Shown: one piece after another, positions 2,300 through 43,991 of the stretch
Layout of the letters: every line of letters begins with the position of its first letter
Position numbering within the stretch: position 1 is the first letter of the stretch
From: Candidatus Uhrbacteria bacterium
GTDB taxonomy: Bacteria; Patescibacteriota; Patescibacteriia; UBA9934
DNA length: 55,732 bases
Reading direction: 5' to 3'
NCBI GenBank assembly: GCA_943359325.1
Contig: CALRHD010000005.1
Location: 1 to 55,732, forward strand
Made by a program: the position numbers and the translations under genes
Notes under the pieces: generated by a model
What the model was told of the DNA's origin: nothing
Databases searched by the model: none
Seen by the model: only the letters and a program-made list of their open reading frames with translations

Positions 2300-3640
2300 T
2301 TATATTTTTCCGATTTCAAGACGCAGCAAATGCATTGCCTCGTCGCGGTTGGTGACGAGGCCACTCAGTTGCGCGTCGCGGATTTTGGAGAGAAGTCGGC
2401 GGTAGAGGGGGCCGGGTGGAATGCCGAGCGTGTCGAGGTCACGGCCGCGGAGCAGTTTTGGTGACGCATCTCTTTGCTCATCGTAACGGTCGAGTAGTCG
2501 GCGTGCAACATGCATACGTTCTCTGCCAACGTGGTGGGTGCCTTCGTCAAGAAAAACGGCGTGCATGAGTGCGAGCAGTTGACGACCACGTTGATTGCCA
2601 AAGATTTTTTCGAATGCTGATGGTTGCAAAGAGGCCGGGTCGATGTCCGTAAACATGCGGAGGTTGTCGAGGAGCCACGTGGTGTCGTCGACATCGCAGT
2701 GCGAGGGGTGAGAGCTGTGAATTTCGTGGAGATGATAATCGCGAGCGAGATTTTTGATGACCGTTGTTGCATTTGGCTCGTTCGCGAGGAGTGCGGCGAG
2801 CGTCGCGGCGTTCGATAGTTTTTCGACACCGTGGCCGCCGAGTGTTTCAGGATGAGCAAAAGTGTGGAGCATGGCGACAGAATGAGCAGAGGTGTCGTCA
2901 TTTACGTTTGGTGCAAGCGTCGACAAAAGGCCGCTTGCGTGGACAAGTGAGGCGCCGTAACGGCTGTTTGCGGCGAGAATGTCGAGAAGCGCATGGCCAA
3001 GCACGCGACGAGGAATTGTAAAACGCGACAGGCCTTCGTCGTCATGTTCCGTGATATGAAGGCGGGGGAGTGATCGCGTCAATGCGTGCCACGTTTCGCC
3101 AGCGAAAGTGAATTCGTGCTGTGCGGCGAGACGAAGTGCGCGGAGTGTCGCGAGCGGTTCGTTGGCAAATGTGCGGAGTGGGTAGTTGGTTGTTCGGAGC
3201 GTGCGAGTTTTTATGTCGTCAAGGCCGTTGCCATTTGCATCGTCGATGGCATGGTCGCGGTAGCGATAAGTGAGGCTGTCGACCGTAAATTCTTTTCGCT
3301 CTTGTGGTGTCGTTGATAAAATAATTGTGTGCGCTGCGTCGTTTGGTGCGAATGTCATGACGTCGCCGTATCCCTCAAGTTGAAAATTGCCGTACGGCGT
3401 GAGTGCGCTACGAATGTCATGTGACGATGTGTGGTGAATAGTGACATGTGGCGTTGCAGGAATATGCCCAAGTAAAATGGTGCGAAGCGTCGCGCCGCCA
3501 AGAGAGAGATCGGCGTTTGGCTGCCGTCGCAAAAATGGATTGACCCACTGTAAGCGCGGATCCCTTGCAATAAAATCACGCACCCGTTCAGCGGGAGGCA
3601 TGGAAAAATTTGCGTAGCGCAAAAGCAAGTCCTCAGACAT
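2300..3640 (-). CDS. tRNA nucleotidyltransferase / poly(A) polymerase family protein (CCA-adding-enzyme-like) with a degenerate active-site motif
   Basis: LSLGGATLRTILLG matches the GGxVRDxLLG head motif, KEFTVDSLTY matches RRDFTINA, and FANEPLATLRALRLAAQ matches F.eDPLRiLRA.RFaa. There is no acidic DxD after LLG (HIPATPHVTIHH). Confidence 0.75.
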   Translation of the reverse strand: MSEDLLLRYANFSMPPAERVRDFIARDPRLQWVNPFLRRQPNADLSLGGATLRTILLGHIPATPHVTIHHTSSHDIRSALTPYGNFQLEGYGDVMTFAPNDAAHTIILSTTPQERKEFTVDSLTYRYRDHAIDDANGNGLDDIKTRTLRTTNYPLRTFANEPLATLRALRLAAQHEFTFAGETWHALTRSLPRLHITEHDDEGLSRFTIPRRVLGHALLDILAANSRYGASLVHASGLLSTLAPNVNDDTSAHSVAMLHTFAHPETLGGHGVEKLSNAATLAALLANEPNATTVIKNLARDYHLHEIHSSHPSHCDVDDTTWLLDNLRMFTDIDPASLQPSAFEKIFGNQRGRQLLALMHAVFLDEGTHHVGRERMHVARRLLDRYDEQRDASPKLLRGRDLDTLGIPPGPLYRRLLSKIRDAQLSGLVTNRDEAMHLLRLEIGKI

Positions 3641-3662
3641 GTGATAATTATATCACATTACA

Positions 3663-3829
3663 CTTCGCCTCTGCTTCTTTCGCCGCTCGGGTACGTTTCC
3701 CCGACATCGCGGAGGAGCAGCTCTTACGATCGTCGAATATATCCTGAATAGGATTCGACGACTGAATCGTGCTATTCCTCCACGAGTCGTGAAAAGTACC
3801 ACTCGCGGCTTGGTCGCCGAGGCGAAAAG
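3663..3829. repeat. Long imperfect palindrome, family A, copy 1 (about 167 nt)
   Basis: The left arm cttcgcctc..gggtacgtttccccgacatcgcggagg..cgatcgtcgaat pairs with the right arm attcgacgactgaatcgtg..cctccacgagtcgtgaaaagtacc..gaggcgaaaag. About 80% identical to the reverse complement of 29745-29897. Confidence 0.8.
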
Positions 3830-3833
3830 CACA

Positions 3834-4988
3834 TCACCGTTTCAGCTCAATCCGCAAATGTGTGATGAGTATCTTCTCTGCCTCCACAATATCCGTTGTG
3901 GAAAGTGACAAGTGAGCAGCTTCGCGGGTGCCGCTGGCTTTGAATGGAGAGCCGAGTTGAAGGGCGTCGTGTGGCCTACTGGTGTGAAGGCGTACGGCGA
4001 TATGGTCGTCGTCATGTTCGTAAAGAATAGCAACGACATCGGCGTCGGGGGATGTGGCGAGCAGTTCTTCCACAATGTCGTCGAGAGCGTGTTCGTTCGT
4101 TCCTGCAGCGATAAAGTCCTGTTTCGTGAGCAGCGTCCACACCAAACGAACGTCGTTGTCGACTTTGAGACGTGCCAATGCTCTGCCCCACAAGCGCAAT
4201 GTTTCGACACTGCGAGTGCGGTAGAGTTTTTCGACGATTTCGTCGCGTCGTCCCCCTTTGTTCATGAGCGCTCCTGCGGTTTTGAGCGTTTTTGGTGTGA
4301 CGTTTGGTGTTTTGAAACTCTTTGTTTTCGCAATCATGCCTGCCAAAAAACATGTTGCAACGTCGGCGTCGATGAGATTTTCGTCGATGCGCGTAAGCAA
4401 ATCGAAACACGCTTCACCGTTTGCAACGGCACTGATGTCGACAAGATTCATGTGACCAAAATGTTCGTTTGCGGCGGTGTGGTCGATGTTGATAATCGGC
4501 GTATTGAAAAAGAAATCTGCGTAGGCCGTTGCAACGTCGCCGAGTGCCGTAATGTCGGAAACACCGATCATGAGAATAACGTCGTAGCGATAACCGGTCG
4601 TTGATACACGCACGTCGTCGCTCCGCCATGCGCCGTGCTTTGGCGTGACGTCGATGCGCAGTATGTCGTTTTCGGTGACGTGTGTAAGTGTGTCGACTTT
4701 TGCATTTGCACAGTCGATGGTGATGGTGACGCTGCGAATATTTGGGAGATCGTGGAGGACGACACGGCCGTTCGCGAGGAATGCGAGATTTTGCGGAACA
4801 GGAGCGCCTGCAGAAAGAATGTCGATTTTTTTGCCAAGCGCCTCAATGATGCGTGCAAGGCCGAACGCAGTTGCGATGTCGTCAATATGTGGCGTTTCAG
4901 AAAGCACGATAACCGGCCGTTCTGCACGTTTGATCTGGCTAAGAAATTGTTCGTGGAGGAGCAGAGACACAGCAGTCGTCAGGAACAT
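3834..4988 (-). CDS. DHH-family phosphoesterase (NrnA-like), motifs partly degenerate
   Basis: Has the N-terminal HIDDIATAFGLA motif, NIDHTAANEHFG (DHH motif reading DHT), and a DHHA1-like C-terminus. 384 aa is typical for the family. Confidence 0.75.
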   Translation of the reverse strand: MFLTTAVSLLLHEQFLSQIKRAERPVIVLSETPHIDDIATAFGLARIIEALGKKIDILSAGAPVPQNLAFLANGRVVLHDLPNIRSVTITIDCANAKVDTLTHVTENDILRIDVTPKHGAWRSDDVRVSTTGYRYDVILMIGVSDITALGDVATAYADFFFNTPIINIDHTAANEHFGHMNLVDISAVANGEACFDLLTRIDENLIDADVATCFLAGMIAKTKSFKTPNVTPKTLKTAGALMNKGGRRDEIVEKLYRTRSVETLRLWGRALARLKVDNDVRLVWTLLTKQDFIAAGTNEHALDDIVEELLATSPDADVVAILYEHDDDHIAVRLHTSRPHDALQLGSPFKASGTREAAHLSLSTTDIVEAEKILITHLRIELKR

Positions 4989-5077
4989 GAATGAGGGGGC
5001 AGTGTAGACACGTAGCCCTCGAGCGTCAAGAAAGGCGATTGCTTTTTTGCTGTCTTTTGATACGATTGGGGGTATCT

Positions 5078-7666
5078 ATGGACGAGTTTGCAAAAGCGTA
5101 CGAGCCAAAGTTGGTGGAAGACGGCATATACGAAAAATGGTTGCAGAGTGGTTTTTTTGCACCCGAGAATTTACCAGGGGAGCGCACAGAGGCGTTTTCT
5201 ATTGTGTTGCCGCCACCGAATGTGACAGGCACGCTGCACATGGGGCACGCCGCGATGTTGGCGATTGAAGACGCGATGATTCGTTTTGCGCGACTGTCGG
5301 GCAAAAAAACGGTGTGGATTCCTGGCACCGACCATGCGGCGATTGCGACACAGAGCAAAGTTGAAGGCATGATTTTTAAAGAGGAGGGCAAAACACGACA
5401 CGATCTTGGCCGAGACGAATTTTTGGCACGCGTGCAAAAATTTGCGGCAGAGAGTCGCAACACGATTGTTGATCAGTGTCAAAAAATGGGTGCGTCGCTT
5501 GACTGGAGTCGCGAGGCGTACACACTCGATGCTGCGCGTAACAACGCCGTGAACGTCGCGTTCAAAAAAATGTATGACGACGGACTTATTTATCGCGGCT
5601 ATCGCGTGGTGAACTGGGATCCCGTAGGGCAGACAACAATTGCTGACGATGAAATTGTGCACAAAGAAGTCGAGTCGACGTTGTACACGTTCCGGTATGC
5701 AAAAGACTTTCCGATTGCGATTTCTACGACGCGCCCCGAAACAAAAGTGGGGGACACGGCGGTGGCGGTGCATCCTACAGACAAACGCTACAAAAAATTT
5801 GTTGGCAAAGTTTTTGACGTTGATTTTTGTGGCGCATCGTTATCGATAACCGTTGTTGCAGATGAGAGTGTCGACCCAATGTTTGGAACAGGTGCGCTGG
5901 GAGTGACTCCTGCGCACAGTACTATTGATGCAGATATCGCGGCACGCCACGATCTTCCCATGACGCAGGTTATTGGTGAGGATGCAAAAATGATGCAATC
6001 TGCAGGAACGATTGTCGCAGGAAAGACAACGAAAGAAGCACGAGTGATCGTTGTAGATTGGTTGCGCGAAAATAATCTCATCGAAAGCGAAGAGAAAACC
6101 GTACAGAATTTGTCGACGGCCGAGCGTTCGGGTGGCGCTATTGAACCATTGCCAAAGATGCAGTGGTTTGTGAGTGTTACCAAGGAGTTCGATCGTCATG
6201 GCAAGAAAGCCACATTGAAATCGCTCATGCAGGACGCAGTACGTTCTAAAACTGTAGAAATTTTGCCGGAACGATTCGAAAAAACATACTTTCACTGGAT
6301 CGACAATTTGCGCGACTGGAACATTTCGCGCCAGATTTGGTTTGGGCATAGAGTTCCCGTGTGGTATCGCGGTGATGAGATTGCTGTGGGTGAAGCGATG
6401 GGTGATGGTTGGGAACAGGATCCCGACACGCTTGATACGTGGTTTAGTAGCGGATTGTGGACGTTCTCTACGCTTGGGTGGCCTGACGAGAAAAAGTTTT
6501 TAGAGAATCGGGAGTTTCATCCAACGACCGTTCTTGAGACAGGTTACGATATTTTGTTTTTCTGGGTTGCACGAATGATCCTCATGTCGACATATCTTCT
6601 TGGCGAGGTGCCGTTCAAAACTGTGTACCTCCATGGTTTAGTACGCGACGAACAAGGGCGCAAGATGAGTAAATCGCTTGGCAACATCATCAATCCGCTC
6701 GACATGATTGCAAAGTACGGTGCCGATGCAACTCGACTGTCACTGGTGATTGGTAGTACACCAGGGAATGACGTCAAATTGTCGGAGGAGAAGATTGCGG
6801 GTTTTCGTAACTTCACAAATAAACTTTGGAACATTTCGCGGTTTGTCGAAATAACCACAAAGGGCTTGCACCACGTGGAAAGCGTTGAGCCGAATACGCT
6901 TGCCGACCGTTGGATTCTCGGTCGACTTTTGGAGGTTGCTGAAAAAGTGACTACGCTGCACGAAACATATCAACTTTCGCTTGCGGGAGAATTATTGCGG
7001 GAGTTTACATGGAGTGACTTTGCCGATTGGTATTTAGAAATCGCTAAAATTGAAAAAGGTAAAGATGACATGCTTTGTTATGTCCTCGAGCGTCTGCTTA
7101 TTTTGTGGCACCCGTTCATGCCGTTTGTGACAGAAGAAATCTACGCGCGATTTGGGAATGGGATGTTAATTGTTGCAGAGTGGCCGAAAAAAGAGTCCGG
7201 TTCCGCCGGAGAAAACGGTGATGCAGCGTATTTTCACACACTGCAAAACATCATCACGGCGATTAGGAATATCCGTGCCGAATATAAGGTTGAGCCAAAG
7301 AAGTTTATCGACGTTATGGTTTCAGATGCGGCCATCGTGGAGCACGCCGACATCATAAAAGCATTGGCACGAGTTGAAAATCTCACCGTTGGCAGCAAGG
7401 CAGAAAATTCCGTTTCTACGATTGTCGACGGTGTCGAGATTCGTGTGTTGCTTAAGGGACCTGTAGACGTCGCAAAAGAACATGCTCGGCTCGAAAAAGA
7501 ATACGAAGATACCACGAACTATATTCGTGTGCAGACGGAAAAGCTTGCGAACACGGATTTTGTGTCACGGGCGCCAGAGAAGGTCATCACCATTGAACGA
7601 ACGAAGTTGGACGAGGCGCAAACAAAGGCAAAAAAGATTGAACAACAATTGGCTTCAATGAAATAA
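5078..7666 (+). CDS. valS: Valine--tRNA ligase
   Basis: PPPNVTGTLHMGH (HIGH), KMSKSLGN, and a C-terminal coiled coil. The start is moved to the ATG at 5078 (MDEFAKAYEPK), preceded by ggggg. The track ORF start at 4991 adds an implausible extension. Confidence 0.97.
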   Translation: MDEFAKAYEPKLVEDGIYEKWLQSGFFAPENLPGERTEAFSIVLPPPNVTGTLHMGHAAMLAIEDAMIRFARLSGKKTVWIPGTDHAAIATQSKVEGMIFKEEGKTRHDLGRDEFLARVQKFAAESRNTIVDQCQKMGASLDWSREAYTLDAARNNAVNVAFKKMYDDGLIYRGYRVVNWDPVGQTTIADDEIVHKEVESTLYTFRYAKDFPIAISTTRPETKVGDTAVAVHPTDKRYKKFVGKVFDVDFCGASLSITVVADESVDPMFGTGALGVTPAHSTIDADIAARHDLPMTQVIGEDAKMMQSAGTIVAGKTTKEARVIVVDWLRENNLIESEEKTVQNLSTAERSGGAIEPLPKMQWFVSVTKEFDRHGKKATLKSLMQDAVRSKTVEILPERFEKTYFHWIDNLRDWNISRQIWFGHRVPVWYRGDEIAVGEAMGDGWEQDPDTLDTWFSSGLWTFSTLGWPDEKKFLENREFHPTTVLETGYDILFFWVARMILMSTYLLGEVPFKTVYLHGLVRDEQGRKMSKSLGNIINPLDMIAKYGADATRLSLVIGSTPGNDVKLSEEKIAGFRNFTNKLWNISRFVEITTKGLHHVESVEPNTLADRWILGRLLEVAEKVTTLHETYQLSLAGELLREFTWSDFADWYLEIAKIEKGKDDMLCYVLERLLILWHPFMPFVTEEIYARFGNGMLIVAEWPKKESGSAGENGDAAYFHTLQNIITAIRNIRAEYKVEPKKFIDVMVSDAAIVEHADIIKALARVENLTVGSKAENSVSTIVDGVEIRVLLKGPVDVAKEHARLEKEYEDTTNYIRVQTEKLANTDFVSRAPEKVITIERTKLDEAQTKAKKIEQQLASMK

Positions 7667-7676
7667 CGGAGGTTTT

Positions 7677-8903
7677 ATGATTACGGATAAACAACACATC
7701 GATCACGTTCTCTCTCGCGGTGTCGAAGCGGTGCTGCCGACACGAGATGCATTGGCAGAAATGCTCGCGAGTGGTAAGCGGATTCGGCTGTACTGCGGGT
7801 TTGACCCGACGGCGCCGTCGCTTCACATTGGGCACGCGCTTCAACTAAGAAAATTGAGAGAATTTCAAGACCTCGGTCACGAGGTTATTATGCTCGTGGG
7901 TTCGTTTACTGCAATGATCGGCGACCCAACCGACAAGGGTGCGGCACGTACACCACTTTCGGCGGAGCAAGTCATGGAAAACGCGAAGACGTGGAAAAAG
8001 ATGGCTTCCAAGTTTTTACGTTTTCATGGCGAGAACAAAGCGGTGGTGATGCACAACCACAGATGGCTCGGTAAACTCAATCTCGGCGATGTCGTCAATC
8101 TTGCGAGCAATTTTACTGTTCAGCAGATGATGGAGCGCGACATGTTTCAAAAACGACAGAAAGAGGGGAAGCCGATTTACCTCCATGAATTCATATATCC
8201 GCTCATGCAGGGCTACGATTCGGTAGTGATGGATGTCGACTTGGAAATTGGTGGAAACGATCAGTTATTTAACATGCTTGCGGGGAGAACGCTCATGAAG
8301 GCAATGAAGCAAAAAGAAAAATTTGTGCTTGCGCTCAAGCTTCTCACGAATGACGAGGGGAAGAAGATGAGCAAGACCGAGGGCGGATTTATCGCGATCG
8401 ATGACGTGCCGGAAGACATGTATGGAAAAATCATGGCTATGAACGACGGAATGATCGTGCCATATTTCGAGATTGTGACCGATGTGCCCGCGGAAGAGAT
8501 AACGAAGATTCGTGAAGAACTTTCAGGAGGAAAAAATCCCCGCGACGTGAAAATGGCGCTTGCAAAAACCGTTGTTGCAATGTTCCACGGCCCGCGTGCG
8601 GCGTCGAAAGCGGAAAAGCATTTTGTGGGTGTGATTCAAAATAAAGAAGCTCCAGATGAAATGCCGATATTCAATACAGCATTGCAGCAAGGAAATGCAT
8701 TGGTTCTTGGCGAAGGAGCCATGACGCTCGTTGATGTACTCGTGAAGGCAAAACTCGCTGTGTCGAACGGCGAAGCGCGACGATTGATAGAGCAGGGAGG
8801 TGTAACGCTCGACGACGTAAAAATCGACGACGCATTTCGTGATATGCGAAACGTGAAGGGTGTTTTACGACGTGGTAAACGACAGTTCGTTCGTCTGGTT
8901 TAG
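7677..8903 (+). CDS. tyrS: Tyrosine--tRNA ligase
   Basis: YCGFDPTAPSLHIGH, KKMSKT, and a C-terminal S4-like domain (SNGEARRLIEQGGV). Confidence 0.97.
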   Translation: MITDKQHIDHVLSRGVEAVLPTRDALAEMLASGKRIRLYCGFDPTAPSLHIGHALQLRKLREFQDLGHEVIMLVGSFTAMIGDPTDKGAARTPLSAEQVMENAKTWKKMASKFLRFHGENKAVVMHNHRWLGKLNLGDVVNLASNFTVQQMMERDMFQKRQKEGKPIYLHEFIYPLMQGYDSVVMDVDLEIGGNDQLFNMLAGRTLMKAMKQKEKFVLALKLLTNDEGKKMSKTEGGFIAIDDVPEDMYGKIMAMNDGMIVPYFEIVTDVPAEEITKIREELSGGKNPRDVKMALAKTVVAMFHGPRAASKAEKHFVGVIQNKEAPDEMPIFNTALQQGNALVLGEGAMTLVDVLVKAKLAVSNGEARRLIEQGGVTLDDVKIDDAFRDMRNVKGVLRRGKRQFVRLV

Positions 8904-8908
8904 GTTTT

Positions 8909-10615
8909 ATGTATACACGTGATCAGGCAAAAAAAGAGGCGCTCACAAGTCTTAAAAAGGCGCTTGGAAAAACGTTTTCGCTTTCGGCGGATATGCTTGT
9001 CGTTCCTCCAAAATCTGACATGGGTGATGTAGCGTTTGCGTGTTTTGCGCTGGCAAAAGGGGCGGGCCGCAACCCTGCCGAGATTGCGACGGAGCTTGCA
9101 GCAAAACTTGCGCCGTCGCCGCTTGTGCGAAAAATTACGTCGCAAGGTCCGTACGTGAATTTTTTGTTCAACGACGTTGCGTTCGGCGCAAGCGTTCTTG
9201 CCGATGTCGCCAAAATGAAAAAGCGCTATGGGAACGGCACGACAGGGAAGGGTAAAAAAGTGCTCGTGGAATACGCTCAGCCGAACACGCATAAGGAATT
9301 TCACGTTGGCCATATTCGTAATGCGGTGTACGGGCAGGCTGTTGTCGACCTTGTTCGTGCGAACGGCTACGAAACAATCGCTGCGGCATATATTGGCGAC
9401 GTGGGGGCGCATGTTGCGAAGGCGGTATGGGGTTTTAAGAAGTTTTTTGGTGACGCGATGATTGCGAAAGAAGACCGTGCGCGTATTCTCGGCGAAGCGT
9501 ACGCGAAGGCAACGGCGTTTGTGGATGAACATGAAGAGGCAAAAGAAGAAATCGCCGATGTTCAGCGAAAGCTCGAAGCAGAAGAGGAGCCGTGGTTGTC
9601 GTTGTGGCGAGAAACGCGCGAATGGAGTTTGGATGCGTTTCGTGAGAATTTTGCGGAGCTCGGCGTTGCACCCGACGCATGGTATTTCGAGAGCGAAGTC
9701 GAAAAGCCTGGCAAAGAGCTGGTGAAAAAAATGCTCATCGACGGGATTGCGCGGAAAAGTGAAGGTGCGACGATTGTGGATTTGGAGAACGAAAATCTTG
9801 GTGTTTTTCTTATCCTCAAAACCGATGGCTCGTCCTTGTATGCAACGAAGGATTTAGCACTCGCGTTTCAAAAAGAGCGCGACTATAGCGCCGACAGGCA
9901 GATTTTCGTGATTGACGTTCGCCAGTCGCTCTACATGAAGCAACTTTTTGCGACGCTGAAGCGCATGCATTTTCACCCGGAGCTTGTGCATCTTGGCTAC
10001 GAAATGGTTACCCTACCCGAAGGTGCGATGTCGTCCCGTAAGGGCAATGTAGTGACGTACGAAGATTTACGCGACGCGATGGTCGAGAAAATCGTTGCAG
10101 AAACGGCAACGCGTCATTCCGACTGGAAGCCGAAGAAAGTGCGTCAAATTGCAGTTGCAGTTGCAATGGCGGGCATGAAATTTATGGTGCTGCGCCAGGA
10201 TCCGGGCAAGCAAATCGTGTTTGACATGGACGAAGCGATGTCGGTCGATGGATTTACGGGGCCGTATATTTTGTACACGATTGCACGCATCAACAGCATT
10301 GAAGCAAAGGCGGACGTGTCTGCATTGCCGCTTGCCGAACACCTCACGCAACCGCTTGAGCAGCGCCTACTTCGCCATGTTGCCGCTTATCCGAGCGTTG
10401 TCGCAAAAGCGGCAGCGACATTTAATGTGTCGCTTATTGCGCACGAGGCGTTTGGACTGGCGAAACTTTTTGCCGAGTACTACCAAGAGGTGAGAATTCT
10501 AGATGACGTAAACCATGAACGTAAAGCGGCCCGACTTGCGCTTCTGTACGCCGTTCGGCAGACGTTGACGAATGCGTGTGGATTGCTCGGGATGGCGGTA
10601 GTAAAAGAGATGTAG
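8909..10615 (+). CDS. argS: Arginine--tRNA ligase
   Basis: EYAQPNTHKEFHVGHIRN (HIGH region) and a C-terminal DALR-type anticodon-binding region ending in M. Confidence 0.96.
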   Translation: MYTRDQAKKEALTSLKKALGKTFSLSADMLVVPPKSDMGDVAFACFALAKGAGRNPAEIATELAAKLAPSPLVRKITSQGPYVNFLFNDVAFGASVLADVAKMKKRYGNGTTGKGKKVLVEYAQPNTHKEFHVGHIRNAVYGQAVVDLVRANGYETIAAAYIGDVGAHVAKAVWGFKKFFGDAMIAKEDRARILGEAYAKATAFVDEHEEAKEEIADVQRKLEAEEEPWLSLWRETREWSLDAFRENFAELGVAPDAWYFESEVEKPGKELVKKMLIDGIARKSEGATIVDLENENLGVFLILKTDGSSLYATKDLALAFQKERDYSADRQIFVIDVRQSLYMKQLFATLKRMHFHPELVHLGYEMVTLPEGAMSSRKGNVVTYEDLRDAMVEKIVAETATRHSDWKPKKVRQIAVAVAMAGMKFMVLRQDPGKQIVFDMDEAMSVDGFTGPYILYTIARINSIEAKADVSALPLAEHLTQPLEQRLLRHVAAYPSVVAKAAATFNVSLIAHEAFGLAKLFAEYYQEVRILDDVNHERKAARLALLYAVRQTLTNACGLLGMAVVKEM

Positions 10616-13034: not shown

Positions 13035-13072
13035 CAAACAAAAATCCGATGGCAAAAACCATCAGATTCTTG
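13035..13072 (-). terminator. Intrinsic terminator after tRNA-Leu; left arm of a 38-nt inverted repeat
   Basis: On the minus strand it reads caagaatctgatggtttttgccatcggatttttgtttg, a hairpin plus T-run. This is essentially identical to 13409-13446 on the plus strand. Confidence 0.6.
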
Positions 13073-13159
13073 TGGTGCGCGAAAGAGGACTCGAACCTCC
13101 AAGCTATTGCTAGCATCAGCCCCTCAAGCTGACGAGTTTACCAATTTCTCCATTCGCGC
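13073..13159 (-). tRNA. tRNA-Leu, anticodon GAG, type II, CCA encoded
   Basis: Reverse complement: GCGCGAA TG GAG..CTC, anticodon stem TCAGC/GCTGA with loop TTGAGGG, 15-nt variable arm, T arm GGAGG-TTCGAGT-CCTCT, TTCGCGC A CCA. Confidence 0.88.
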
Positions 13160-13332: not shown

Positions 13333-13408
13333 GGGCTCTTAGCTCAGTTGGTAGAGCGTCTGGCTGGCAGTCAGAAGGTCACCGGTTCGAACCCGGTAGG
13401 GTCCACCA
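13333..13408 (+). tRNA. tRNA-Ala, anticodon GGC, CCA encoded
   Basis: Acceptor GGGCTCT/AGGGTCC carries the G3:U70 alanine identity pair. Anticodon loop CTGGCAG. Confidence 0.9.
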
Positions 13409-13446
13409 CAAGAATCTGATGGTTTTTGCCATCGGATTTTTGTTTT
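13409..13446 (+). terminator. Intrinsic terminator after tRNA-Ala; right arm of the 38-nt inverted repeat
   Basis: caagaatctgatggtttttgccatcggatttttgttttg: a hairpin (aatctgatgg/ccatcggatt) plus T-run. Confidence 0.6.
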
Positions 13447-18902: not shown

Positions 18903-19823
18903 ATGTCTGACAGAATGCAACGAGCACCCACACCCATCGCCGCTGATTGTTTTTCCGTCATCGCATACTTTTCTTATTTTCAGTATCCGTTGACGGCGTT
19001 TGAAGTGTGGAAGTGGTTGTATATGCCGTCGCAGGCATGGAGTCTTGTGGACGTTATGACAGTGCTCGAAAAGGACGAATGGCTCCGAGAACGCGTGGGG
19101 GAGTGGAACGGATTTTATGGTATGGGCGACGTGGAGTCGGCATGGCGCGACCGTCACTCCCGTTACCTCGATGCAATGCGAAAGTACGCGGCGCTGCGTT
19201 TGGTTGCGGCGCTTATTGGCCGATTGCCGAGTGTGGAGGGTGTGTTCGTGTGTAATTCACTTGCGTACCACCATACGAACGAAGAGAGCGATAGTGACTT
19301 GTGCGTTGTCACGAAATCGGGACGGGTGTGGACGGCGAGACTGTTTGTTGTGCTGATGCTGGCGTTGTTGCGAAAACGACCCGGTGAAGCGAAGCGCGAC
19401 CCCGTGTGTGCGAGTTTTTTTGTCGACGTTACGACGATGGATTTTTCCGTGTACGCTATCGAGCCGCACGACCCGTACCTTGCGTATTGGACGGCGACGC
19501 TTATTCCGCTCGTTGATCGCGAGGGGGTTACACAACACACCGCGCAAACAAATACATGGACAAAGCAGTTTTTGCCAAATGCCCAGTCCGTTCACCGCGC
19601 ATTCGCATTTCGACGTAAAAAGGGGTCAGGTCTTGTTATTACTCATTTTGTCACAGAAAAATTCGCGCGACGATTTCAAGAAAAACGATTTACTCCTGTG
19701 ATTACTGCACTCTTGAACGTCGATTCGCGTGTTGTCGTGAACGACCACGTACTCAAATTTCATACGAATGACCGTCGCGCTGAAATTGCTACGACATATA
19801 AAGAAAAACTTTCTCGTATATGA
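18903..19823 (+). CDS. Hypothetical protein with a possible pol-beta-type nucleotidyltransferase motif; carries an in-frame 33-nt repeat insertion
   Basis: CNSLAYHHTNEESDSDLCVV resembles GS-x(n)-DxD. Residues KGSGLVITHF are encoded by the repeat at 19618-19650. Confidence 0.5.
   Translation: MSDRMQRAPTPIAADCFSVIAYFSYFQYPLTAFEVWKWLYMPSQAWSLVDVMTVLEKDEWLRERVGEWNGFYGMGDVESAWRDRHSRYLDAMRKYAALRLVAALIGRLPSVEGVFVCNSLAYHHTNEESDSDLCVVTKSGRVWTARLFVVLMLALLRKRPGEAKRDPVCASFFVDVTTMDFSVYAIEPHDPYLAYWTATLIPLVDREGVTQHTAQTNTWTKQFLPNAQSVHRAFAFRRKKGSGLVITHFVTEKFARRFQEKRFTPVITALLNVDSRVVVNDHVLKFHTNDRRAEIATTYKEKLSRI
19618..19650 (+). repeat. Solo copy of the 32-33 nt terminal repeat of the 21120-22023 element, lying inside a CDS
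   Basis: aaaaggggtcaggtcttgttattactcattttg is identical to 21120-21152. Confidence 0.9.
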
Positions 19824-21157
19824 CTATTCCGTTGAAGCAAACCCTGCTCTGTGTGTTCGTATTTTTACTCCCGTGGCAAACGCATCTTCTTGTGTCGACG
19901 GGAATGATTGGCGACGTTATTCATCCGTTTGCCGAAGCAAAGATTTTTTTGACGGAAATTTTTGTGCTGCTTGCGGCGCTTGCTGTGCTGTGGGAGCGGC
20001 CGAAGATTGACGCGTCGTCTCGGCGCGTCATTGTACTTGCCGTGCTCGTATTTGTTTCTGCTACGCTATCGCTTATTGCCAACGGAGCAACAGCGCACGG
20101 CTTGTCGATGCTCGACCATTTGTTTGTCGCGATGTTGTTTTTTACGCTTCTGCTCGATCGCGATGTCCACATTCTGCCGCTGTTGATTGCATTTTGCGCA
20201 GGGCTTGTTGTGCCGTCGCTGCTCGGAATATGGCAGGTGCTTTTTGACTCTTCGTTTGCGTCGACACTTCTCGGTCTCGCGCATCGCGATGCGCAGCAAC
20301 TTGGTGACGCTGTGACTATTGCTGCCGACGGAACACGTCAACTTCGTGCGTATGGCAGTTTTTCGCACCCAAACATTTTTGGCGGCTATCTCGCTGTTGC
20401 TGTATTCGCGCTGTGGGGGAGCATGAAAAAAGAAAAAGGGGTCAGGTCTTGGTCCGCCAGCTGGCGAAGGAATTTTGCCTTGTTGTTGCTATTGGTTGTC
20501 GTCCTCTTTTTTACCGCTTCGCGATCCGCAATTCTTGGTCTATTGCTTGGCATTGGTCTCGTGCAGTTCGTTCGGTTCATGTCGGTGAAATGTAGAAATG
20601 GCGTGGTACGAGCGAGATTACTCGTTGTTCCCATCGCAATTGCCGTCATCGGTAGTGCATTGTTTATTTCGTACGCAGAACCAAACGTTGTCGCGAGTAT
20701 TCGCGGCGGCGGCATTACTGAAGATCGTTCGCTCGATGAACGGAAGGAGCAGTTTGCTGATTTCCCCGCAGTGGTCGCCGGCCACATGATGTTCGGTAAC
20801 GGTATGGGAAGTTATGTTTTGGCGGCGTACAGCGCAAAAACGTGTACAGGCTGGGACTGTCAGCCGATGCACAACACGCTCCTCCTTATTCTCGCCGAAC
20901 TTGGTGTCGTCGGCCTCGTCGTTGTTATTGCGTGGTCATCAACAATCGACCGCATAAATTTCGCACGCTTTCCGAACCCCGATGCGCTCGTCGCATTCGC
21001 GATGGGCAACGTTATTCTCATCATTCTCTTTTTTGACCACTATATCTGGTCGACATGGTCTGGTCTCGCACTCATCGCTTTCGTCATGGCACTTACCGTC
21101 CGCATGGGAGAAAAGCAAGAAAAGGGGTCAGGTCTTGTTATTACTCATTTTGAGTAA
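19820..21157 (+). CDS. O-antigen ligase (Wzy_C/WaaL) family membrane protein
   Basis: RAYGSFSHPNIFGGYLAV, FFTASRSAILGLLLG, QPMHNTLLLILAELGVVG. There is an ATGA overlap with the upstream gene. The C-terminal KGSGLVITHFE is encoded by the element repeat. Confidence 0.8.
   Translation: MTIPLKQTLLCVFVFLLPWQTHLLVSTGMIGDVIHPFAEAKIFLTEIFVLLAALAVLWERPKIDASSRRVIVLAVLVFVSATLSLIANGATAHGLSMLDHLFVAMLFFTLLLDRDVHILPLLIAFCAGLVVPSLLGIWQVLFDSSFASTLLGLAHRDAQQLGDAVTIAADGTRQLRAYGSFSHPNIFGGYLAVAVFALWGSMKKEKGVRSWSASWRRNFALLLLLVVVLFFTASRSAILGLLLGIGLVQFVRFMSVKCRNGVVRARLLVVPIAIAVIGSALFISYAEPNVVASIRGGGITEDRSLDERKEQFADFPAVVAGHMMFGNGMGSYVLAAYSAKTCTGWDCQPMHNTLLLILAELGVVGLVVVIAWSSTIDRINFARFPNPDALVAFAMGNVILIILFFDHYIWSTWSGLALIAFVMALTVRMGEKQEKGSGLVITHFE
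20434..20451 (+). repeat. Partial (18-nt) copy of the same repeat inside the O-antigen ligase CDS
   Basis: aaaaggggtcaggtcttg, after which the sequence diverges. Encodes KKEKGVRSW. Confidence 0.6.
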
Positions 21158-22023
21158 AATTTTATGACGCGACCACTTCGTATTACATACTCTGGAGCTC
21201 TCTATCACATCACTGCTCGCGGCAATGAGAAGAAAGATATTTTCTTTTCCGACAGCGATCGCAGTCGTTTTTTGACAACTCTGGGTAATGTCGTAAGGTC
21301 ATATAATTGGATCTGTCACGGTTACTGTTTGATGGATAATCATTATCATCTACTGATTGAAACACCAGAAGGCAATCTATCGGAAGGTATGCGGCAACTG
21401 AACGGCATGTATACGCAGTCGATGAACAAGGTTCGCGGTCGGGTCGGTCACCTTTTTCAAGGAAGATTTAAAGCATTTCTTGTTGAGCAAGAAACATATT
21501 TGCGAGAAGTCGCCCGATATATTGTTTTAAATCCTGTGCGCGCAAAGATTGCCCGTCGACCAGAGGATTGGCGTTGGAGTAGCTATAGGGCCATGGTGGG
21601 TATTCGTGCGGTTCCTGATTTTCTTACTACACAAAATATACTCCGACGCTTTAGCTCGACAAAAAAGATCGCAATACAGAGGTATCGTGATTTTGTCTAC
21701 GAAGGGATTGGTGCGAGAAGTCCATTCCATAATGTACAACATGGTACATTGCTTGGCTCGCAGCAATTTGTTGATGCAATGTGGCAAGCAAATGACACGT
21801 CACACCTCACAGAAGTTTCAAAAGAAAATCGTATTATTGGACGTCCATCACTAAAAGATTTATTTTCAGGGAAACCAAGCAAAAAAGTTCGCAATCATAT
21901 GATTTGTGTCGCAAGAGATCAGTGCGGATATCCTATGATCGAAATTGCAAAAGCATTAAAAATACACTACTCGTCGGTGACGAGAATTTATAAAATGAGT
22001 AATAACAAGACCTGACCCCTTTT
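21120..22023 (+). mobile_element. 904-bp unit: a Y1/HUH transposase gene bounded by perfect 32-bp inverted repeats
   Basis: The left arm aaaaggggtcaggtcttgttattactcatttt (21120-21151) is the exact reverse complement of 21992-22023. Confidence 0.8.
21164..22015 (+). CDS. HUH/Y1 transposase-like protein (IS200-like / REP-associated tyrosine transposase family) with a C-terminal DnaA-C-like HTH
   Basis: PLRITYSGALYHITARGN, CLMDNHYHLLIETP (HUH), GHLFQGRFKA, ARYIVLNPVRA (catalytic Tyr region), WRWSSY. The C-terminal CGYPMIEIAKALKIHYSSVTRI is HTH-like. Confidence 0.85.
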   Translation: MTRPLRITYSGALYHITARGNEKKDIFFSDSDRSRFLTTLGNVVRSYNWICHGYCLMDNHYHLLIETPEGNLSEGMRQLNGMYTQSMNKVRGRVGHLFQGRFKAFLVEQETYLREVARYIVLNPVRAKIARRPEDWRWSSYRAMVGIRAVPDFLTTQNILRRFSSTKKIAIQRYRDFVYEGIGARSPFHNVQHGTLLGSQQFVDAMWQANDTSHLTEVSKENRIIGRPSLKDLFSGKPSKKVRNHMICVARDQCGYPMIEIAKALKIHYSSVTRIYKMSNNKT

Positions 22024-22101
22024 CCTTGACATTCCAGTGTTTACGCGGCAAGATGCGGCGAGAAAAGCTATACTTATAATTATTGTTAACGAGATGTTTC
22101 T

Positions 22102-22389
22102 ATGACATTGCGACCATTGGGCGGCAACATCATCGTCGAGCCGGAGGTGAAAGAAGCAAAGACGGCGTCAGGAATTTATTTGGCAGACGCGGGAGAAAAG
22201 CGTCAAGGGCAAGGCAAGGTGATCGCTGTTGGTCCCGGAAAAACGCTTGAGAACGGCACGCGTCAGAGTGTTGATGTAAAAATTGGTGATACGATCGTAT
22301 TCAAACAATACGCGCCGGACGAAGTGAAAGTAGAAAATAAAACATATCTTGTGCTTTCTGCCGACGACGTGATGGCGATAATTGAGTAA
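22102..22389 (+). CDS. groES: Co-chaperonin GroES
   Basis: LRPLGGNIIVEP..KTASGIYL..GKVIAVGPG is the typical Cpn10 pattern. Confidence 0.96.
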   Translation: MTLRPLGGNIIVEPEVKEAKTASGIYLADAGEKRQGQGKVIAVGPGKTLENGTRQSVDVKIGDTIVFKQYAPDEVKVENKTYLVLSADDVMAIIE

Positions 22390-24093
<1,704 letters not shown>

Positions 24094-24106: not shown

Positions 24107-24130
24107 AGCGGGGCATGTACCCCGCTTTTG
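24107..24130 (+). terminator. Intrinsic terminator after groEL
   Basis: AGCGGGG-catgta-CCCCGCT followed by TTTG. Confidence 0.65.
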
Positions 24131-24147
24131 CTATGCTGTTGACTATT

Positions 24148-24614
24148 ATGAACGATGAAGAAATACGTCTTGCTGCAAAAGCGGAGATACGTACAAAAAA
24201 GAAAAGATTAATTGAAAAATTTGGGGGAAAACTGAGTTTTCAAAAAATCTTGCTCATGCTTTTGAGCGCGGATCGTTTCGCGACGCGTTTCCAACGAATA
24301 GAGAATTTACGTTCTCGAAGATAGTGCGTATTGATCCCGATGAAATTCGGAGTGAAATTACAGGATATAATGGGAGCAATGCGTACCTTTTCCAAGGAGC
24401 GATTTCAGACGGTGTGAATCGTATTATGGATCACTGCCAGGTTAAGAATAAATCATTTATTCTTGACGGCACATTTTCGAAATATGATACATCGAAAAAG
24501 AACGTTGAACGAGATCTTTCATCGAATAACTATGCGGTAAGTATTAATATTGATAATATTGACGGTAAGGGAAAAATCCCATACGATGAAAATGATCTGT
24601 TACAAAAACTGTAA
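24148..24614 (+). pseudogene. Decayed zeta-toxin/AAA-kinase-like gene: frameshifted, Walker A disrupted, C-terminally truncated
   Basis: The second frame reads ..WGKTEFSKNLAHAFERG..VRIDPDEIRSEITGY..AYLFQGAISDGVNRIMDHCQVKNKSFILDGTF, matching the zeta-toxin pattern (GK[ST] .. vIDaDefR .. q..a .. n.ilEGT). A stop lies immediately before the GKT. The upstream part (MNDEEIRLAAKAEIRTKKKRLIEKFGG) is in another frame. The region is AT-rich. Confidence 0.45.
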
Positions 24615-24843
24615 TTTTATGGGATTTATCAATCAACTTTTTGTTAAATTTACTATGGGCAATCAACCCAAAAAGGTTGACGCGCTGCATTATTTTATTA
24701 CTGAGGTTTCTGCGGGAAAAAAGAAACGGGCATTGGGAATGATTATCAAGCAGGTGAATAAGGATCAGAGAGCTATCGTCGAACAGGGTCGAAAATTGTC
24801 GGTAATAAAAAGTTAGAGATTTAACGATTCGTAATTTTTTGTT

Positions 24844-25227
24844 ATGGAAAACACGCCAGAAACAGTCATTGTTCATGTGCCGCACGGTGGTCCAAGCGAA
24901 AAAGATCGTGCGCTCGGAGCTATTGCGTACATTGGTCCTTTGTTCATTGCCTCGTACATTTTTGGCACAGAGTCGAAATTTATAAAGTTCCATGCTGCGC
25001 AGGGTATGGTGTTTTTTATCGCGGCAATCGTTATCCGGCTCGTGCTGGGCACGTTATTAGTTTCTTCGGGCGGCATGGGCGCCGCGATGTTCGGTGGAAG
25101 TTCTCTTATGATGCTTGTGCATCTCGTGTTGCTCATTATTGCAATCATCGCAGTTATCAAAGCGGCAAAAGGTGAAGAATGGGAAATGCCTGTTGTGGGG
25201 CCGCTTGCAAAAAAGTTAAAAGTGTAA
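24844..25227 (+). CDS. DUF4870-like small membrane protein
   Basis: EKDRALGAIAYIGPLFIASYIFGTESKFIKFHAAQGMVFFI matches the family pattern (..HL..l..PLi.yl..k.s.fv.fHa.Q.l.f). Confidence 0.65.
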   Translation: MENTPETVIVHVPHGGPSEKDRALGAIAYIGPLFIASYIFGTESKFIKFHAAQGMVFFIAAIVIRLVLGTLLVSSGGMGAAMFGGSSLMMLVHLVLLIIAIIAVIKAAKGEEWEMPVVGPLAKKLKV

Positions 25228-27296: not shown

Positions 27297-28276
27297 AAGT
27301 GCTTGTAACCGGCGGAGCAGGATTTATTGGTTCACATCTTGTTGACGCATTGGTGGCGCGTGGCGATGATGTGGTTATCGTCGATCATCATCGGCGTGAG
27401 AAAATGCGTTTCCCGAATAGGAAGGCGACGACGTATGTCATGGGCATCGACGACGTGCGGCTCGAAGAGATTTTTTTTGCAGAGCGACCGGACGCCGTGT
27501 GTCACTTAGCGGCGCAAATTAGCGTCACACATTCTCTTGCACAGCCTATTGACGACGCCGAAAAAAATATTATCGATAGCGTGCGTTTGCTCGACATCGC
27601 GCAGAAGTCCGGAGTCAAAAAGTTTGTTTTTGCGTCGAGTGGTGGCGCGATTTATGGCGACCACGCACTGCGTCCTACGCCGCTCGTTGAGGACGTATGG
27701 CCGAGCACGCCGTATGGCGTGGGCAAGCACATTTTCGAACGCTATCTTCATCAGTATTGGGCGCAATACGGTCTTCGCTACACGTCGCTGCGTTTTGCAA
27801 ATGTGTATGGCCCGCGTCAACAGGCGGGAAAAGGTGGCGAAGATGGCAGCGCGATCGCGATTTTCCTCCACAAGATTTTTTCGGGTGAGCCGATAACGAT
27901 TTTTGGTGACGGCAGTGCAACCCGCGACTATGTGTTTGTGAGCGACGCCGTGGACGCGTTGTGTCGTGCAATTGATTCGGATTTTGTGGGCGTGGTGAAC
28001 GTTGGCACCGCACAGGAAACGTCGGTGAAAAATTTGTATGATCTTCTTGTCAGCATGCACGGCAACGAACATCCGTTGACGTTTGCACCATTTCGGCACG
28101 GAGAAACATTACGGAGTGTATTGTCGTTTGACTCTGCACGTGAACATTTGGACTGGGAACCGATGACCGCAATTGACGATGGTCTACGAAAAACGTATGA
28201 ATGGTATGCGTACGTTCTTCTCGCTCAGAACCTTTCCTCCACTACACCTGCTGCGCTACGCCGTTTAGGCTCGTAA
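27293..28276 (+). CDS. NAD-dependent epimerase/dehydratase, second paralogue
   Basis: MKVLVTGGAGFIGSHLVDAL and YGVGKHIFE (YxxxK). ATGA overlap with the upstream gene. The last ~20 codons lie inside palindrome family B copy 1. Confidence 0.9.
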   Translation: MKVLVTGGAGFIGSHLVDALVARGDDVVIVDHHRREKMRFPNRKATTYVMGIDDVRLEEIFFAERPDAVCHLAAQISVTHSLAQPIDDAEKNIIDSVRLLDIAQKSGVKKFVFASSGGAIYGDHALRPTPLVEDVWPSTPYGVGKHIFERYLHQYWAQYGLRYTSLRFANVYGPRQQAGKGGEDGSAIAIFLHKIFSGEPITIFGDGSATRDYVFVSDAVDALCRAIDSDFVGVVNVGTAQETSVKNLYDLLVSMHGNEHPLTFAPFRHGETLRSVLSFDSAREHLDWEPMTAIDDGLRKTYEWYAYVLLAQNLSSTTPAALRRLGS

Positions 28277-28341
28277 ACTCGCCGACGGCTGGGCGACAGA
28301 CGTTTCGTGGAGAAAAAGTTCCTCGCTGAAGAACGTTCACG
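28210..28341. repeat. Long imperfect palindrome, family B, copy 1 (about 132 nt)
   Basis: gtacgttcttctcgctcagaacctttcctccac ... gtggagaaaaagttcctcgctgaagaacgttcac. The core cctgctgcgctacgccgtt..gtaaactcg.cgacggctg.gcgacagacgtt is shared with 52161-52290. Confidence 0.8.
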
Positions 28342-28962: not shown

Positions 28963-29795
28963 ATGCAAAAAAATCATTCGGCCAGCACTTTTTACGCGAC
29001 GCAACTGTTGTCGCTGCAATTCTTCGCGCTGCCGAGCCGGAGAAATTTTCGCTTATTGTTGAAGTGGGGCCGGGAAACGGCGTGCTTACAAGGGCGATAG
29101 TAAGGGAAAGTCAGTTTGCCCTTATTGAAGCTGATCGTGATCTCATTCCTGCTCTCGAGCAGGAGTTTCCGTCGGCAAAAGTTATTTTTGCTGATGCCGC
29201 GCGTGTTGACTATGCGGATATCTGTCGGCAACTGAGTCGTGGACAGTTGTCCGCCCCCACGGTTCGATGGCTTTTAGTGGGGAATCTGCCGTACAACGCC
29301 GCAAATGCGATTATCATGAATGCACTTGAGTCGGAGTGTCCGCCTGAACGCATGGTGGTGATGGTGCAAAAAGAAGTGGGGGAGCGCATGCTCGGATTGA
29401 CGCCGCAGTCGCGCGGTGTGTTGACGGTTGCGGTGCAGATGTATGCCGACGTTGAACGGATTTGTACCGTGAAGCCTGGCGCATTCGTTCCACCGCCGAA
29501 AGTCGACTCGATGGTTCTTCGACTGACAAAAGGCCGTCGAACGGCCTTTACCCCAGACCGCGTAATCGCACTGGCGAAAATTGGCTTCGCGAATCGTCGT
29601 AAACAGCTGCACCGTAATCTTGCCGACGCAGGTGTTGCGCCATCTGATGTCGTCAAAAAGCACCTTGTGGATATAGGGCTCACTGCTTCCGCCCGTGCCG
29701 AAGAACTTTCGATGGAGCAATGGGTGCATTTGTGCAGCGTGTTGCCGAAGCCCGAGCCTCGAGTGGTACTTTCCACGACTCGCGAAGGAAAATAG
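28956..29795 (+). CDS. rsmA: 16S rRNA (adenine1518/1519-N6)-dimethyltransferase
   Basis: KKSFGQHFL, VEVGPGNGVLT, VGNLPYN. GTG start overlapping the tsaC stop. The C-terminal ~15 codons lie inside palindrome family A copy 2. Confidence 0.92.
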   Translation: MVDAKKSFGQHFLRDATVVAAILRAAEPEKFSLIVEVGPGNGVLTRAIVRESQFALIEADRDLIPALEQEFPSAKVIFADAARVDYADICRQLSRGQLSAPTVRWLLVGNLPYNAANAIIMNALESECPPERMVVMVQKEVGERMLGLTPQSRGVLTVAVQMYADVERICTVKPGAFVPPPKVDSMVLRLTKGRRTAFTPDRVIALAKIGFANRRKQLHRNLADAGVAPSDVVKKHLVDIGLTASARAEELSMEQWVHLCSVLPKPEPRVVLSTTREGK

Positions 29796-29897
29796 CACGA
29801 TTCAGTCGTCGACTCCATGCAGGAATATATTCGACGATCGTAAGAGTGCTTCCGAGCGATGTCGGGGAAATGTACCCGAGAGGCGAAGGAGCGAGGC
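29745..29897. repeat. Long imperfect palindrome, family A, copy 2
   Basis: gcctcgagtggtactttccacgactcgcgaagg..gcacgattcagtcgtcga / tcgacgatcgtaagagtgc..gatgtcggggaaatgtacccgagaggc. Aligns to the reverse complement of 3663-3829. Confidence 0.8.
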
Positions 29898-43128: not shown

Positions 43129-43245
43129 GGAAACCTCTATTTTGGGAAAAAGTGGGGTGCACGGAGAAAAGAAAGAACAAGTGTGCACTCAAAACATAGT
43201 CCAAAAATCCCATTTTGTCAACTTCTCGGAGTTATCTGGAGTTAT

Positions 43246-43276
43246 CAACACTCGGCACTGGCAGTGCCGAGTGTTG
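43246..43276. repeat. REP-like palindrome, copy 2 (TCGG/CCGA variant), 5' flank of the Y1 transposase
   Basis: CAACACTCGGCACTG-G-CAGTGCCGAGTGTTG, with perfect 15-nt arms. Confidence 0.9.
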
Positions 43277-43342
43277 TGGTAAAATTATATTGACTCCCTG
43301 GTCTAAGCTGGGGATCTTTTTATTCCAGCGCATTGTTTCTTT

Positions 43343-43924: not shown

Positions 43925-43940
43925 TGACGGAGAGCGGGTT

Positions 43941-43970: not shown

Positions 43971-43991
43971 ATTGTGAGTTATAAAACAATA

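Follow-up and report, generated by a model that had tools for sequence, protein, structure and literature searches.

A Y1 Transposase Gene between Terminal Inverted Repeats

The DNA analysed here, called the window throughout, is a stretch of 55,732 nt (55.7 kb) from contig CALRHD010000005.1 of a Candidatus Uhrbacteria metagenome-assembled genome (MAG; assembly GCA_943359325.1). Between a gene for an O-antigen-ligase-like protein of the Wzy_C family and groES it carries a unit of about 0.9 kb, in which a gene for a 283-aa Y1/HUH protein lies between terminal inverted repeats (TIRs; Table 1). As argued below, the unit is probably a TIRtron, and its protein a TIRYT, that is, a TIR-associated Y1/HUH tyrosine transposase. 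A sequence-only reading of the window had reported perfect inverted repeats of 32 bp around this gene; they are there, and the repeat finder extends them to 33 bp, with arms that are 100% complementary. The 32-mer AAAAGGGGTCAGGTCTTGTTATTACTCATTTT is found in exact copies at 21120-21151 (+) and 21992-22023 (-), for which the chance expectation is 0, and within it the motif GGGGTCAG can be read at 21124-21131 and, on the - strand, at 22012-22019. The 283-aa open reading frame (ORF) is the sole one between the arms, and its TGA stop (22013-22015) does lie inside the right arm, as the same reading had it. Over the unit the GC content dips to 0.43-0.44, compared with 0.49-0.53 in the flanks, and across all contigs that carry the protein its genomic context is one and the same place.

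Folding of the 32-mer as DNA gave -0.2 kcal/mol (z = 0.4), which amounts to no self-fold; the repeat is therefore not palindromic, and a repeat of the repetitive extragenic palindromic (REP) type was rejected on this result. The TIRs also show neither a GTAG tag nor the short imperfect palindrome of REPs. The hairpin TTACTCA-ttt-TGAGTAA that the sequence-only reading had drawn from the left arm and its flank does exist and is real but weak (-4.4 kcal/mol as DNA, z = -2.5). No counterpart was found at the right arm, at the upstream repeat copy (19618-19649) or at the other loci, and it went unreported by the terminator scan, so that it was rejected both as a feature of the family and as a terminator. 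Rfam holds no known structured RNA for the interval 19000-22500.

Table 1. Features of the TIR-bounded unit and its surroundings, in window coordinates.
Feature	Position	Strand	Description
Third exact 32-mer	19618..19649	+	In frame in the 306-aa ORF 18903-19823; encodes KKGSGLVITHF
Wzy_C (O-antigen-ligase-like) gene	19820..21157	+	Pfam E 1.1e-11; alignment of 13 orthologues
Core-only copy	20430..20451	+	8-nt A-rich flank plus 14-nt core; inside the ligase ORF
Left TIR	21119..21151	+	33 bp; 14-bp core GGGGTCAGGTCTTG at 21124-21137; codes for the last 10 codons of the ligase gene
Local hairpin TTACTCA-ttt-TGAGTAA	21141..21157	+	7 bp; inner end of left TIR plus flank; this copy only
TIRYT gene (probable)	21164..22015	+	283-aa Y1/HUH tyrosine nuclease-transposase with C-terminal three-helix HTH (about residues 240-280)
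Right TIR	21992..22024	-	Core at 22006-22019; the TIRYT gene ends in it, with its last 7 codons (KMSNNKT) and its stop
TTGACA hexamer	22027..22032	+	Directly outside the right TIR, upstream of groES (22102-22389)

The Encoded Protein

The 283-aa protein matches the Pfam family Y1_Tnp (E 1.3e-12) and, with 86.7 bits against a cut-off of 80, the NCBIfam model NF047646, "REP-associated tyrosine transposase" (RAYT). Its HUH motif reads N-H60-Y-H62-LL and its class-2 tyrosine motif R-Y119-IVL-N123-P124, with WSS at residues 138-140; H60, H62, Y119, N123, P124, W138 and S139 are invariant both among 15 and among 56 aligned homologues. The AlphaFold model (pLDDT 86.4) finds its closest PDB fold in 4er8, the E. 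coli TnpA_REP with its REP hairpin (E 3.6e-8, TM 0.77 on the target), and the next matches are the TnpA proteins of IS608 and ISDra2. The predicted enzyme has an intact HUH/tyrosine active site on a RAYT-like fold.

In the model, residues 240-280 form three helices, and HTH_23 was matched there at residues 251-279, weakly (E 0.0038) and without reaching the Pfam cut-off; across the 56 homologues the helix-turn-helix (HTH) families hit were HTH_23 (48/56), HTH_38 (35/56) and HTH_28 (22/56). The sequence-only reading had called this tail DnaA-C-like and had proposed to search the protein for Y1_Tnp (PF01797) and Bac_DnaA_C. The first of these was matched and the second is not supported: Bac_DnaA_C gave no match for the window protein and is absent from the top 25 families hit by the 56 homologues, and a PDB sequence profile search returned a DeoR-type HTH and no DnaA. 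The C-terminal tail is a generic HTH, not a specifically DnaA-like one.

The Insertion Site and the Ligase Tail

The gene order NusA-YidC-LPG synthase-295/306 aa-Wzy-GroES-GroEL is kept in relatives. The sequence-only reading had looked to loci with and without the unit for its boundaries, and a related locus (L085) supplies such a comparison: just 44 nt separate Wzy and GroES there, which makes it an empty site. The TTGACA hexamer outside the right TIR also precedes groES in relatives that lack the unit and would therefore mark the right edge of the insertion. Set against this conserved synteny, the unit has been inserted between the wzy-like gene and the promoter of groES. At a further related locus (L086) the wzy-groES position is occupied by a 282-aa gene; we considered this as a second occupied TIRtron site and rejected it, the gene being unrelated to the TIRYT. 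This gene has no Pfam match on record, and in the interval 7386-8380 of that locus it is bracketed by GGTCACTTAGTGA / GGTCACTTAAGTGACC motifs. The wzy-groES site appears to be an insertion hot spot.

It had also been stated that the left arm gives the ligase its last 10 codons and, with the flank, its stop. This proved right: the ligase gene runs through the arm, the TIR codes for KGSGLVITHF, and the flank adds E and the TAA stop (21155-21157). In the alignment of orthologues, conservation of the ligase family stops at ...TVRMGE (residue 431) and is followed by 1-15 variable residues; the tail of the window protein, KQEKGSGLVITHFE, is therefore TIR-derived, with its stop taken from the TIR and flank. 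A ligase 56% identical to that of the window (locus L087) likewise ends in a TIR (...RMGEEKGSGLEM, then stop), and its contig breaks off inside that TIR. The inner sequence there, AAATGTGAATTT, is that of the TIRs of the closest TIRYT homologue (P0002), which comes from the same sample series and stands in a different context. The L087 TIR would fit an old junction at which the TIR changes in concert with those of the gene; alternatively, it may stem from an independent insertion.

Additional Repeat Copies in the Window

The sequence-only reading had counted two copies of the repeat and had missed two more, the full 32-mer at 19618-19649 and a shorter copy matching over 18 nt. The copy in the 306-aa ORF swaps 9 residues of its homologues for 10 and retains an invariant His; it is not present in the three orthologues compared, those of L085, L086 and L087. 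A clean insertion of 11 codons was considered for this copy and rejected, as the alignment shows a 9-to-10-residue replacement. In the core-only copy, the 18 nt AAAAGGGGTCAGGTCTTG at 20434-20451 are identical to the 32-mer, and its 22 nt are 95% like the right end; it sits in a variable loop of the ligase (alignment columns 218-247) and is read in another frame, as KKEKGVRSW. All four copies lie inside 2.4 kb, the two extra ones 0.7 and 1.5 kb upstream, and no further copy of the 32-mer or the core was found elsewhere in the window. The same four-copy arrangement occurs in an independent NCBI assembly (GCA_943350455.1), a MAG matching the window, and it is therefore no artefact of the window's assembly. 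A lineage-specific 21-mer had 0 matches in the JGI metagenomes.

A Conserved Core at the Ends of Homologous Genes

The homologue search scored at least 8000 proteins; identity is 64% for the nearest homologue among the matches listed and 50-57% for the bulk, which are 280-290 aa long. The survey covers 84 homologous loci from more than ten phyla. We fetched 80 loci from named genomes; the groups represented include Patescibacteria, Nitrospirota, beta-, gamma- and deltaproteobacterial groups and Atribacteria, as well as Acidobacteriota, Bipolaricaulota, Thermotogae and Bacteroidota. Many of the homologues end in ...FKT followed by the stop or in ...RRPDPV, and these endings code for the same DNA, AAGACCTGACCCC, in different frames. 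The exact 14-mer GGGGTCAGGTCTTG is found inverted at both gene ends in two distant loci (L002 and L003). When the core was counted at the gene ends of 82 loci with up to 2 mismatches allowed, it was present at the left end in 68, at the right end in 51 and at both ends in 46.

The 59 loci in which both ends were available give units of 886-1183 bp (median 923). Their TIRs are near-invariant at positions 1-14, whereas identity at positions 15-23 is 63-92% between both arms of a given locus and 28-66% between loci. Conservation ends sharply outside position 1 and, on the inner side, near position 24-25; position -1 is a T in about half of the loci. These comparisons show that, from phylum to phylum, the 14-bp core is much more strongly conserved than the protein, that the adjacent part of about 10 bp is lineage-specific, and that the inner parts of the left and right TIRs covary within a locus. 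Target-site duplications (TSDs) were no longer in these 59 loci than in shuffled controls. Y1 elements are not expected to produce them. An insertion sequence (IS) of a DDE family with TSDs, which the sequence-only reading had named as what would overturn its assignment, was rejected: fold and hidden Markov models point to HUH/Y1, and TSDs do not rise above chance.

The core holds two adjacent GGTC(A/T) half-sites. An additional GGTCA half-site is often found about 5-10 nt outside the TIR (L013, L016, L033, L036, L052, L066, L068, L075 and L083), giving GGTCA repeats at roughly helical spacing.

Among 72,556 plasmids we found one full-length homologue (44% identity, Legionella adelaidensis), and the family was not found among 50,697 phages. 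The scan of viral contigs for the 14-mer core returned contigs with a single match and no inverted pairs, and is uninformative. Homologous TIRtrons were also seen on contigs binned as Promethearchaeota (L042) and Streptomycetaceae (L017) MAGs, reflecting either horizontal transfer or binning contamination. For one homologue (P0040), 17 of 18 contigs, which stem from different samples, agree in context; a second context for another (P0029, in L090) was rejected, being the same locus as L088.

The Left Arm and Expression

In the majority class of left arms, the ATG occupies TIR positions 47-49 and is preceded by TTGNNN at 12-17 and by TANNNT at about 35-40; in a second spacing class all three elements are shifted by 7 nt. 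The geometry of both classes would place a promoter within the TIR and make the mRNA leaderless, the promoter reading holding for the majority spacing class of homologues only. In the copies from Patescibacteria the layout is tighter, the ATG lying at position 34-43. In the window the ATG lies 6 nt past the ligase stop, so that the gene is most likely expressed by read-through from the ligase gene.

TIR Copies around Homologous Genes

The loci surveyed comprise 1.17 Mb, in which we found 41 extra copies of the core (at most 1 mismatch), where about 0.4 were expected. They thin out with distance from the gene, from 0.14/kb at 130-500 bp to 0.005/kb at 7.5-10 kb, and their orientation is biased: 22 of 31 upstream extras are on the + strand, in left-arm orientation, and 6 of 8 downstream extras on the - strand, in right-arm orientation. 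The locus-specific inner part is matched at 10/10 positions by 22 of 54 extras, the rest being core-only or diverged. The extras include 15 tandem neighbours, spaced at periods of 20-45 nt and with a unit that joins about 10 nt of outside flank to the core, and 3 inward-facing doublets of 72-159 bp. What is found in the loci are short TIR modules, not remnants of the gene. The two extras of the window, one full and one flank-plus-core, match the family pattern in being upstream and on the + strand, and differ from it in lying inside genes; this location is plausible, since intergenic DNA is scarce in this genome.

L039 (113-226), L078 (10008-10080), L030 (9885-9965), L011 (5983-6020) and L070 (9883-9920) have tandem arrays of 2-4 units, with periods of 20-45 nt. 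Their unit consists of about 10 nt from outside the TIR and 14-17 nt of core, as if flank plus core were the duplicating module, and the window copy at 20430-20451 has the same make-up. L072 has six identical TIR copies of 28 nt, CTGGGGTCAGGTCTTGTATTTGATCATT, in a span of 6.6 kb (2959-9555); an inward-facing doublet among them, at 4013/4158 (159 bp), resembles a miniature inverted-repeat transposable element (MITE) or a REPIN (REP doublet forming a hairpin).

Other Repeats and Insertions in the Window

The sequence-only reading had presented the TIR-bounded gene as the second of two unrelated Y1 units in the window. Their repeats are indeed unrelated. The other Y1 gene (43343-43924) encodes a protein of 193 aa with the motifs NHIHLL and YIHKNP, and both proteins carry the class-2 Y---NP motif; the two are therefore distant relatives, and in this the earlier view has to be amended. 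That gene is flanked by palindromic repeats of 30-34 nt, CAACACTCGGCACTG-N-CAGTGCCGAGTGTTG, at 43243-43276 and 43938-43971, and two further copies are found at 1756-1789 and 44754-44787; the interval 43243-43971 looks like a classical REPtron.

Between groEL and a MamF/MmsF-like gene (24115-25000) lie an ORF of 96 aa with a Zeta_toxin domain and one of 76 aa, in a region whose GC content dips to 0.38; L085 goes directly from GroEL to the MamF-like gene, so that this interval looks like a second small insertion. Two pairs of diverged repeats (100-140 nt, 83-87% identical; 3676-3813 and 29752-29890, 28213-28322 and 52163-52273) stand 24-26 kb apart, one pair inverted and one direct, and suggest paralogous genes or a segmental duplication. 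In the tRNA cluster there is a 62-nt inverted repeat, 85% complementary (13036-13097 and 13384-13445), whose arms overlap tRNA-Leu (-) and tRNA-Ala (+), with tRNA-Val between them.

Relationship to Known Systems

RAYT-like genes with long flanking TIRs were described by Di Nocera et al. (2013, BMC Genomics 14:522; PMC3733652), who named the units TIRtrons and the proteins TIRYTs; that paper gives GGGGWSAS as the shared motif of the main TIR type (also in PMC6006769) and describes TIR families as moderately abundant, occurring as singles, dimers and clusters. In the classification of Quentin et al. (2018, BMC Genomics 19:475; PMC6006769), 20 of 26 TIRYTs fall in TnpA-Y1 subclass 2.1, which is marked by a C-terminal HTH (Bac_DnaA_C, HTH_23 or HTH_28), a lack of REP hairpins and a low copy number; the subclass is present in 14.9% of strains, and the distribution of 2.1.2 is patchy. 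In the literature searched, TIRYTs occur only in these two papers and no experiment on them is reported; a literature search with the 14-mer string returned no relevant paper, only unrelated eukaryotic and viral matches.

The window unit resembles the published TIRtrons in its RAYT-like Y1 gene, in its long non-hairpin TIRs with a GGGGWSAS motif (here GGGGTCAG) and in the overlap of the TIRs with the gene ends (the "5'ov/3'ov" arrangement). The TIRs of published TIRtrons also occur elsewhere as singles, dimers or groups; in the 55.7 kb covered here there are the two nearby extra copies, and homologous loci show TIR families. The unit differs in its host, a Patescibacteria MAG, unsampled in 2013, in the length of its conserved core, 14 bp, which more than ten phyla share unchanged, and in extra copies that lie inside coding sequences, one of which supplies the C-terminus and stop of a neighbouring protein. 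Local clustering, orientation bias and left/right covariation are unreported in the 2013 paper, as far as its text was examined. With TnpA-Y1 subclass 2.1 (2.1.2) the protein shares the Y---NP motif, a serine motif after the catalytic region, its length and a C-terminal HTH, and the unit shares the lack of nearby REP hairpins, low copy number and patchy taxonomy, a likeness drawn from features; the window protein has a short tail of HTH_23 type, not of Bac_DnaA_C type.

The sequence-only reading had compared the unit to a RAYT flanked by inverted, non-palindromic cognate repeats and had set it apart from IS200/IS605; NF047646, the 4er8 fold, the Y---NP motif and the missing self-fold all bear this out, as does the presence of the same TIR core beside homologues from many phyla. 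Like RAYTs in their REPtrons, the enzyme has its closest solved fold in 4ER8 and passes NF047646, its single-copy gene is bracketed by inverted cognate repeats, and the repeats also occur as solos and inverted doublets. In contrast to REPs, the window repeats are non-palindromic and lack a GTAG/CGTC tag, and their core is conserved across phyla where REPs are lineage-specific; the enzyme also has an extra HTH. With IS200/IS605 elements (the TnpA proteins of IS608 and ISDra2) the unit shares the HUH/Y1 catalytic fold and the lack of target-site duplication, but those elements lack TIRs and have subterminal hairpins that share one orientation; they are multi-copy, often include tnpB, and differ in tyrosine motif and protein length; here TIRs are present, hairpins are missing and a single genomic place is on record. 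The likeness to DDE IS elements and MITEs is limited to the superficial TIR-gene-TIR layout and the short TIR doublets of some genomes (L072), whereas the window unit has no DDE transposase and no TSDs, and its chemistry is of the HUH/tyrosine kind. The window element thus agrees with every defining TIRtron feature that gave a clear result and departs from REPtrons, IS200/IS605 and DDE IS elements; this kind of unit being already published, it is an added and, for this genome, expected member, not a new oddity.

A Probable TIRtron and Its Possible Mode of Action

We consider it likely that the unit is a TIRtron, with a single-copy TIRYT gene (TnpA-Y1 class 2, subclass 2.1-like) between its cognate TIRs, which would work as follows. 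The HTH would tether the enzyme to the core with its two adjacent GGTC half-sites; at times in replication when this stretch is single-stranded, the Y1 domain would nick the outer edge of the TIR (T|GGGG) and rejoin strands. What results would mostly be short modules, of TIR or of flank plus core, that settle no more than a few kb away, as solo copies, tandem arrays or inward-facing doublets, analogous to the RAYT-driven spread of REPs and REPINs, and the gene itself would move rarely. In most members the left TIR would carry the -35 box of a leaderless-mRNA promoter, so that binding would autoregulate the gene. For the window copy, transcription reading through from the ligase gene is the probable source. 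Selection would have retained only those TIR copies that preserve the reading frames of host genes. In single-stranded DNA both arms could pair as a stem of 24-33 bp, which would explain the covariation and would put both cleavage sites on one strand.

Several points weigh against this reading. Binding by the TIRYT, the cleavage site and strand transfer are all inferred. The TIR forms no hairpin when the 32-mer is folded as DNA, and to our knowledge all characterised Y1 enzymes recognise a DNA hairpin. The near length-neutral replacement in the 306-aa ORF is unexplained by simple insertion, and slippage or gene conversion could yield extra copies and arrays without the enzyme. No sigma-70-like promoter was found in the window's own left TIR, and the TIR copy number given here is that of the 55.7-kb window.

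The main rival holds that the unit is an autonomous and currently mobile IS of an unclassified "Y1 with TIRs" type, in which the whole 0.9-kb unit transposes and the extra copies are footprints or decayed ends. The compact TIR-gene-TIR layout and its narrow range of lengths would suit such an element, as would its presence or absence at a conserved syntenic site, the GC dip, the patchy occurrence across more than ten phyla at a flat 45-57% identity, the description of subclass 2.1.2 as patchy and suggestive of horizontal gene transfer (PMC6006769), and the full-length copy on a Legionella plasmid. We nevertheless disfavour it and think it improbable: the window protein is known from a single genomic place and P0040 from a nearly invariant context, the family is nearly absent from plasmids and phages, class 2 genes are low-copy with low identity between the copies of a genome (PMC6006769), and the extras are short TIR modules, not remnants of the gene. 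The lack of TSDs also speaks against it, though not strongly for an element of the Y1 kind.

Considerably less probable still is that the protein is a fully domesticated HTH regulator, the repeats being double-stranded operator sites (iterons) that are neither cleaved nor mobilised, with the extra copies regulating neighbouring genes. The conserved C-terminal HTH, a core that contains the two half-sites and overlaps the -35 box in most loci, and the extra GGTCA half-sites that several loci have some 10 nt beyond the TIR would all fit a binding protein. However, the HUH histidines and the catalytic tyrosine are invariant in all aligned homologues, which is unexpected if catalysis is dispensable; the copies of the window lie inside coding regions; and the tandem arrays duplicate outside flank together with core, resembling DNA rearrangement rather than the evolution of operators. 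Chance similarity, or a k-mer-sized repeat made by the assembler, can be set aside: although 32-33 nt is near common assembler k-mer sizes and the L087 contig ends within a TIR, this is refuted by a chance expectation of 0, by the identical structure in an independent assembly and by the same core flanking homologues in 80+ unrelated assemblies.

Implications for the TIRYT Family

What the window adds to the TIRtrons is a clean example from Patescibacteria with defined boundaries, where a relative has the empty syntenic site and a TIR is fused to the coding end of a neighbouring gene, and it shows clearly how the repeat was written into neighbouring genes. The survey adds specifics for the family: the universal 14-bp core, the sharp outer boundary T|GGGG, the covariation of the inner TIR between arms, a putative promoter inside the left TIR, and a spread of TIR modules that is local and biased in orientation. 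With at least 8000 protein clusters returned by the search, the class is very large, yet little treated in the literature. Should the HTH-guided mechanism prove real, it would broaden the view of how HUH enzymes find their DNA.

A bolder proposal, which we regard as improbable, is that TIRYTs are the first Y1/HUH enzymes to read a non-hairpin site, the 14-bp core invariant from Patescibacteria to Proteobacteria, by means of a sequence-specific HTH, and that they are still active, writing and homogenising short TIR cassettes nearby, including in-frame coding "patches" such as those in the 306-aa ORF and the ligase tail. If this were true, it would be a DNA-editing behaviour distinct from both the peel-and-paste transposition of IS200/IS605 and the spread of REPs and REPINs.

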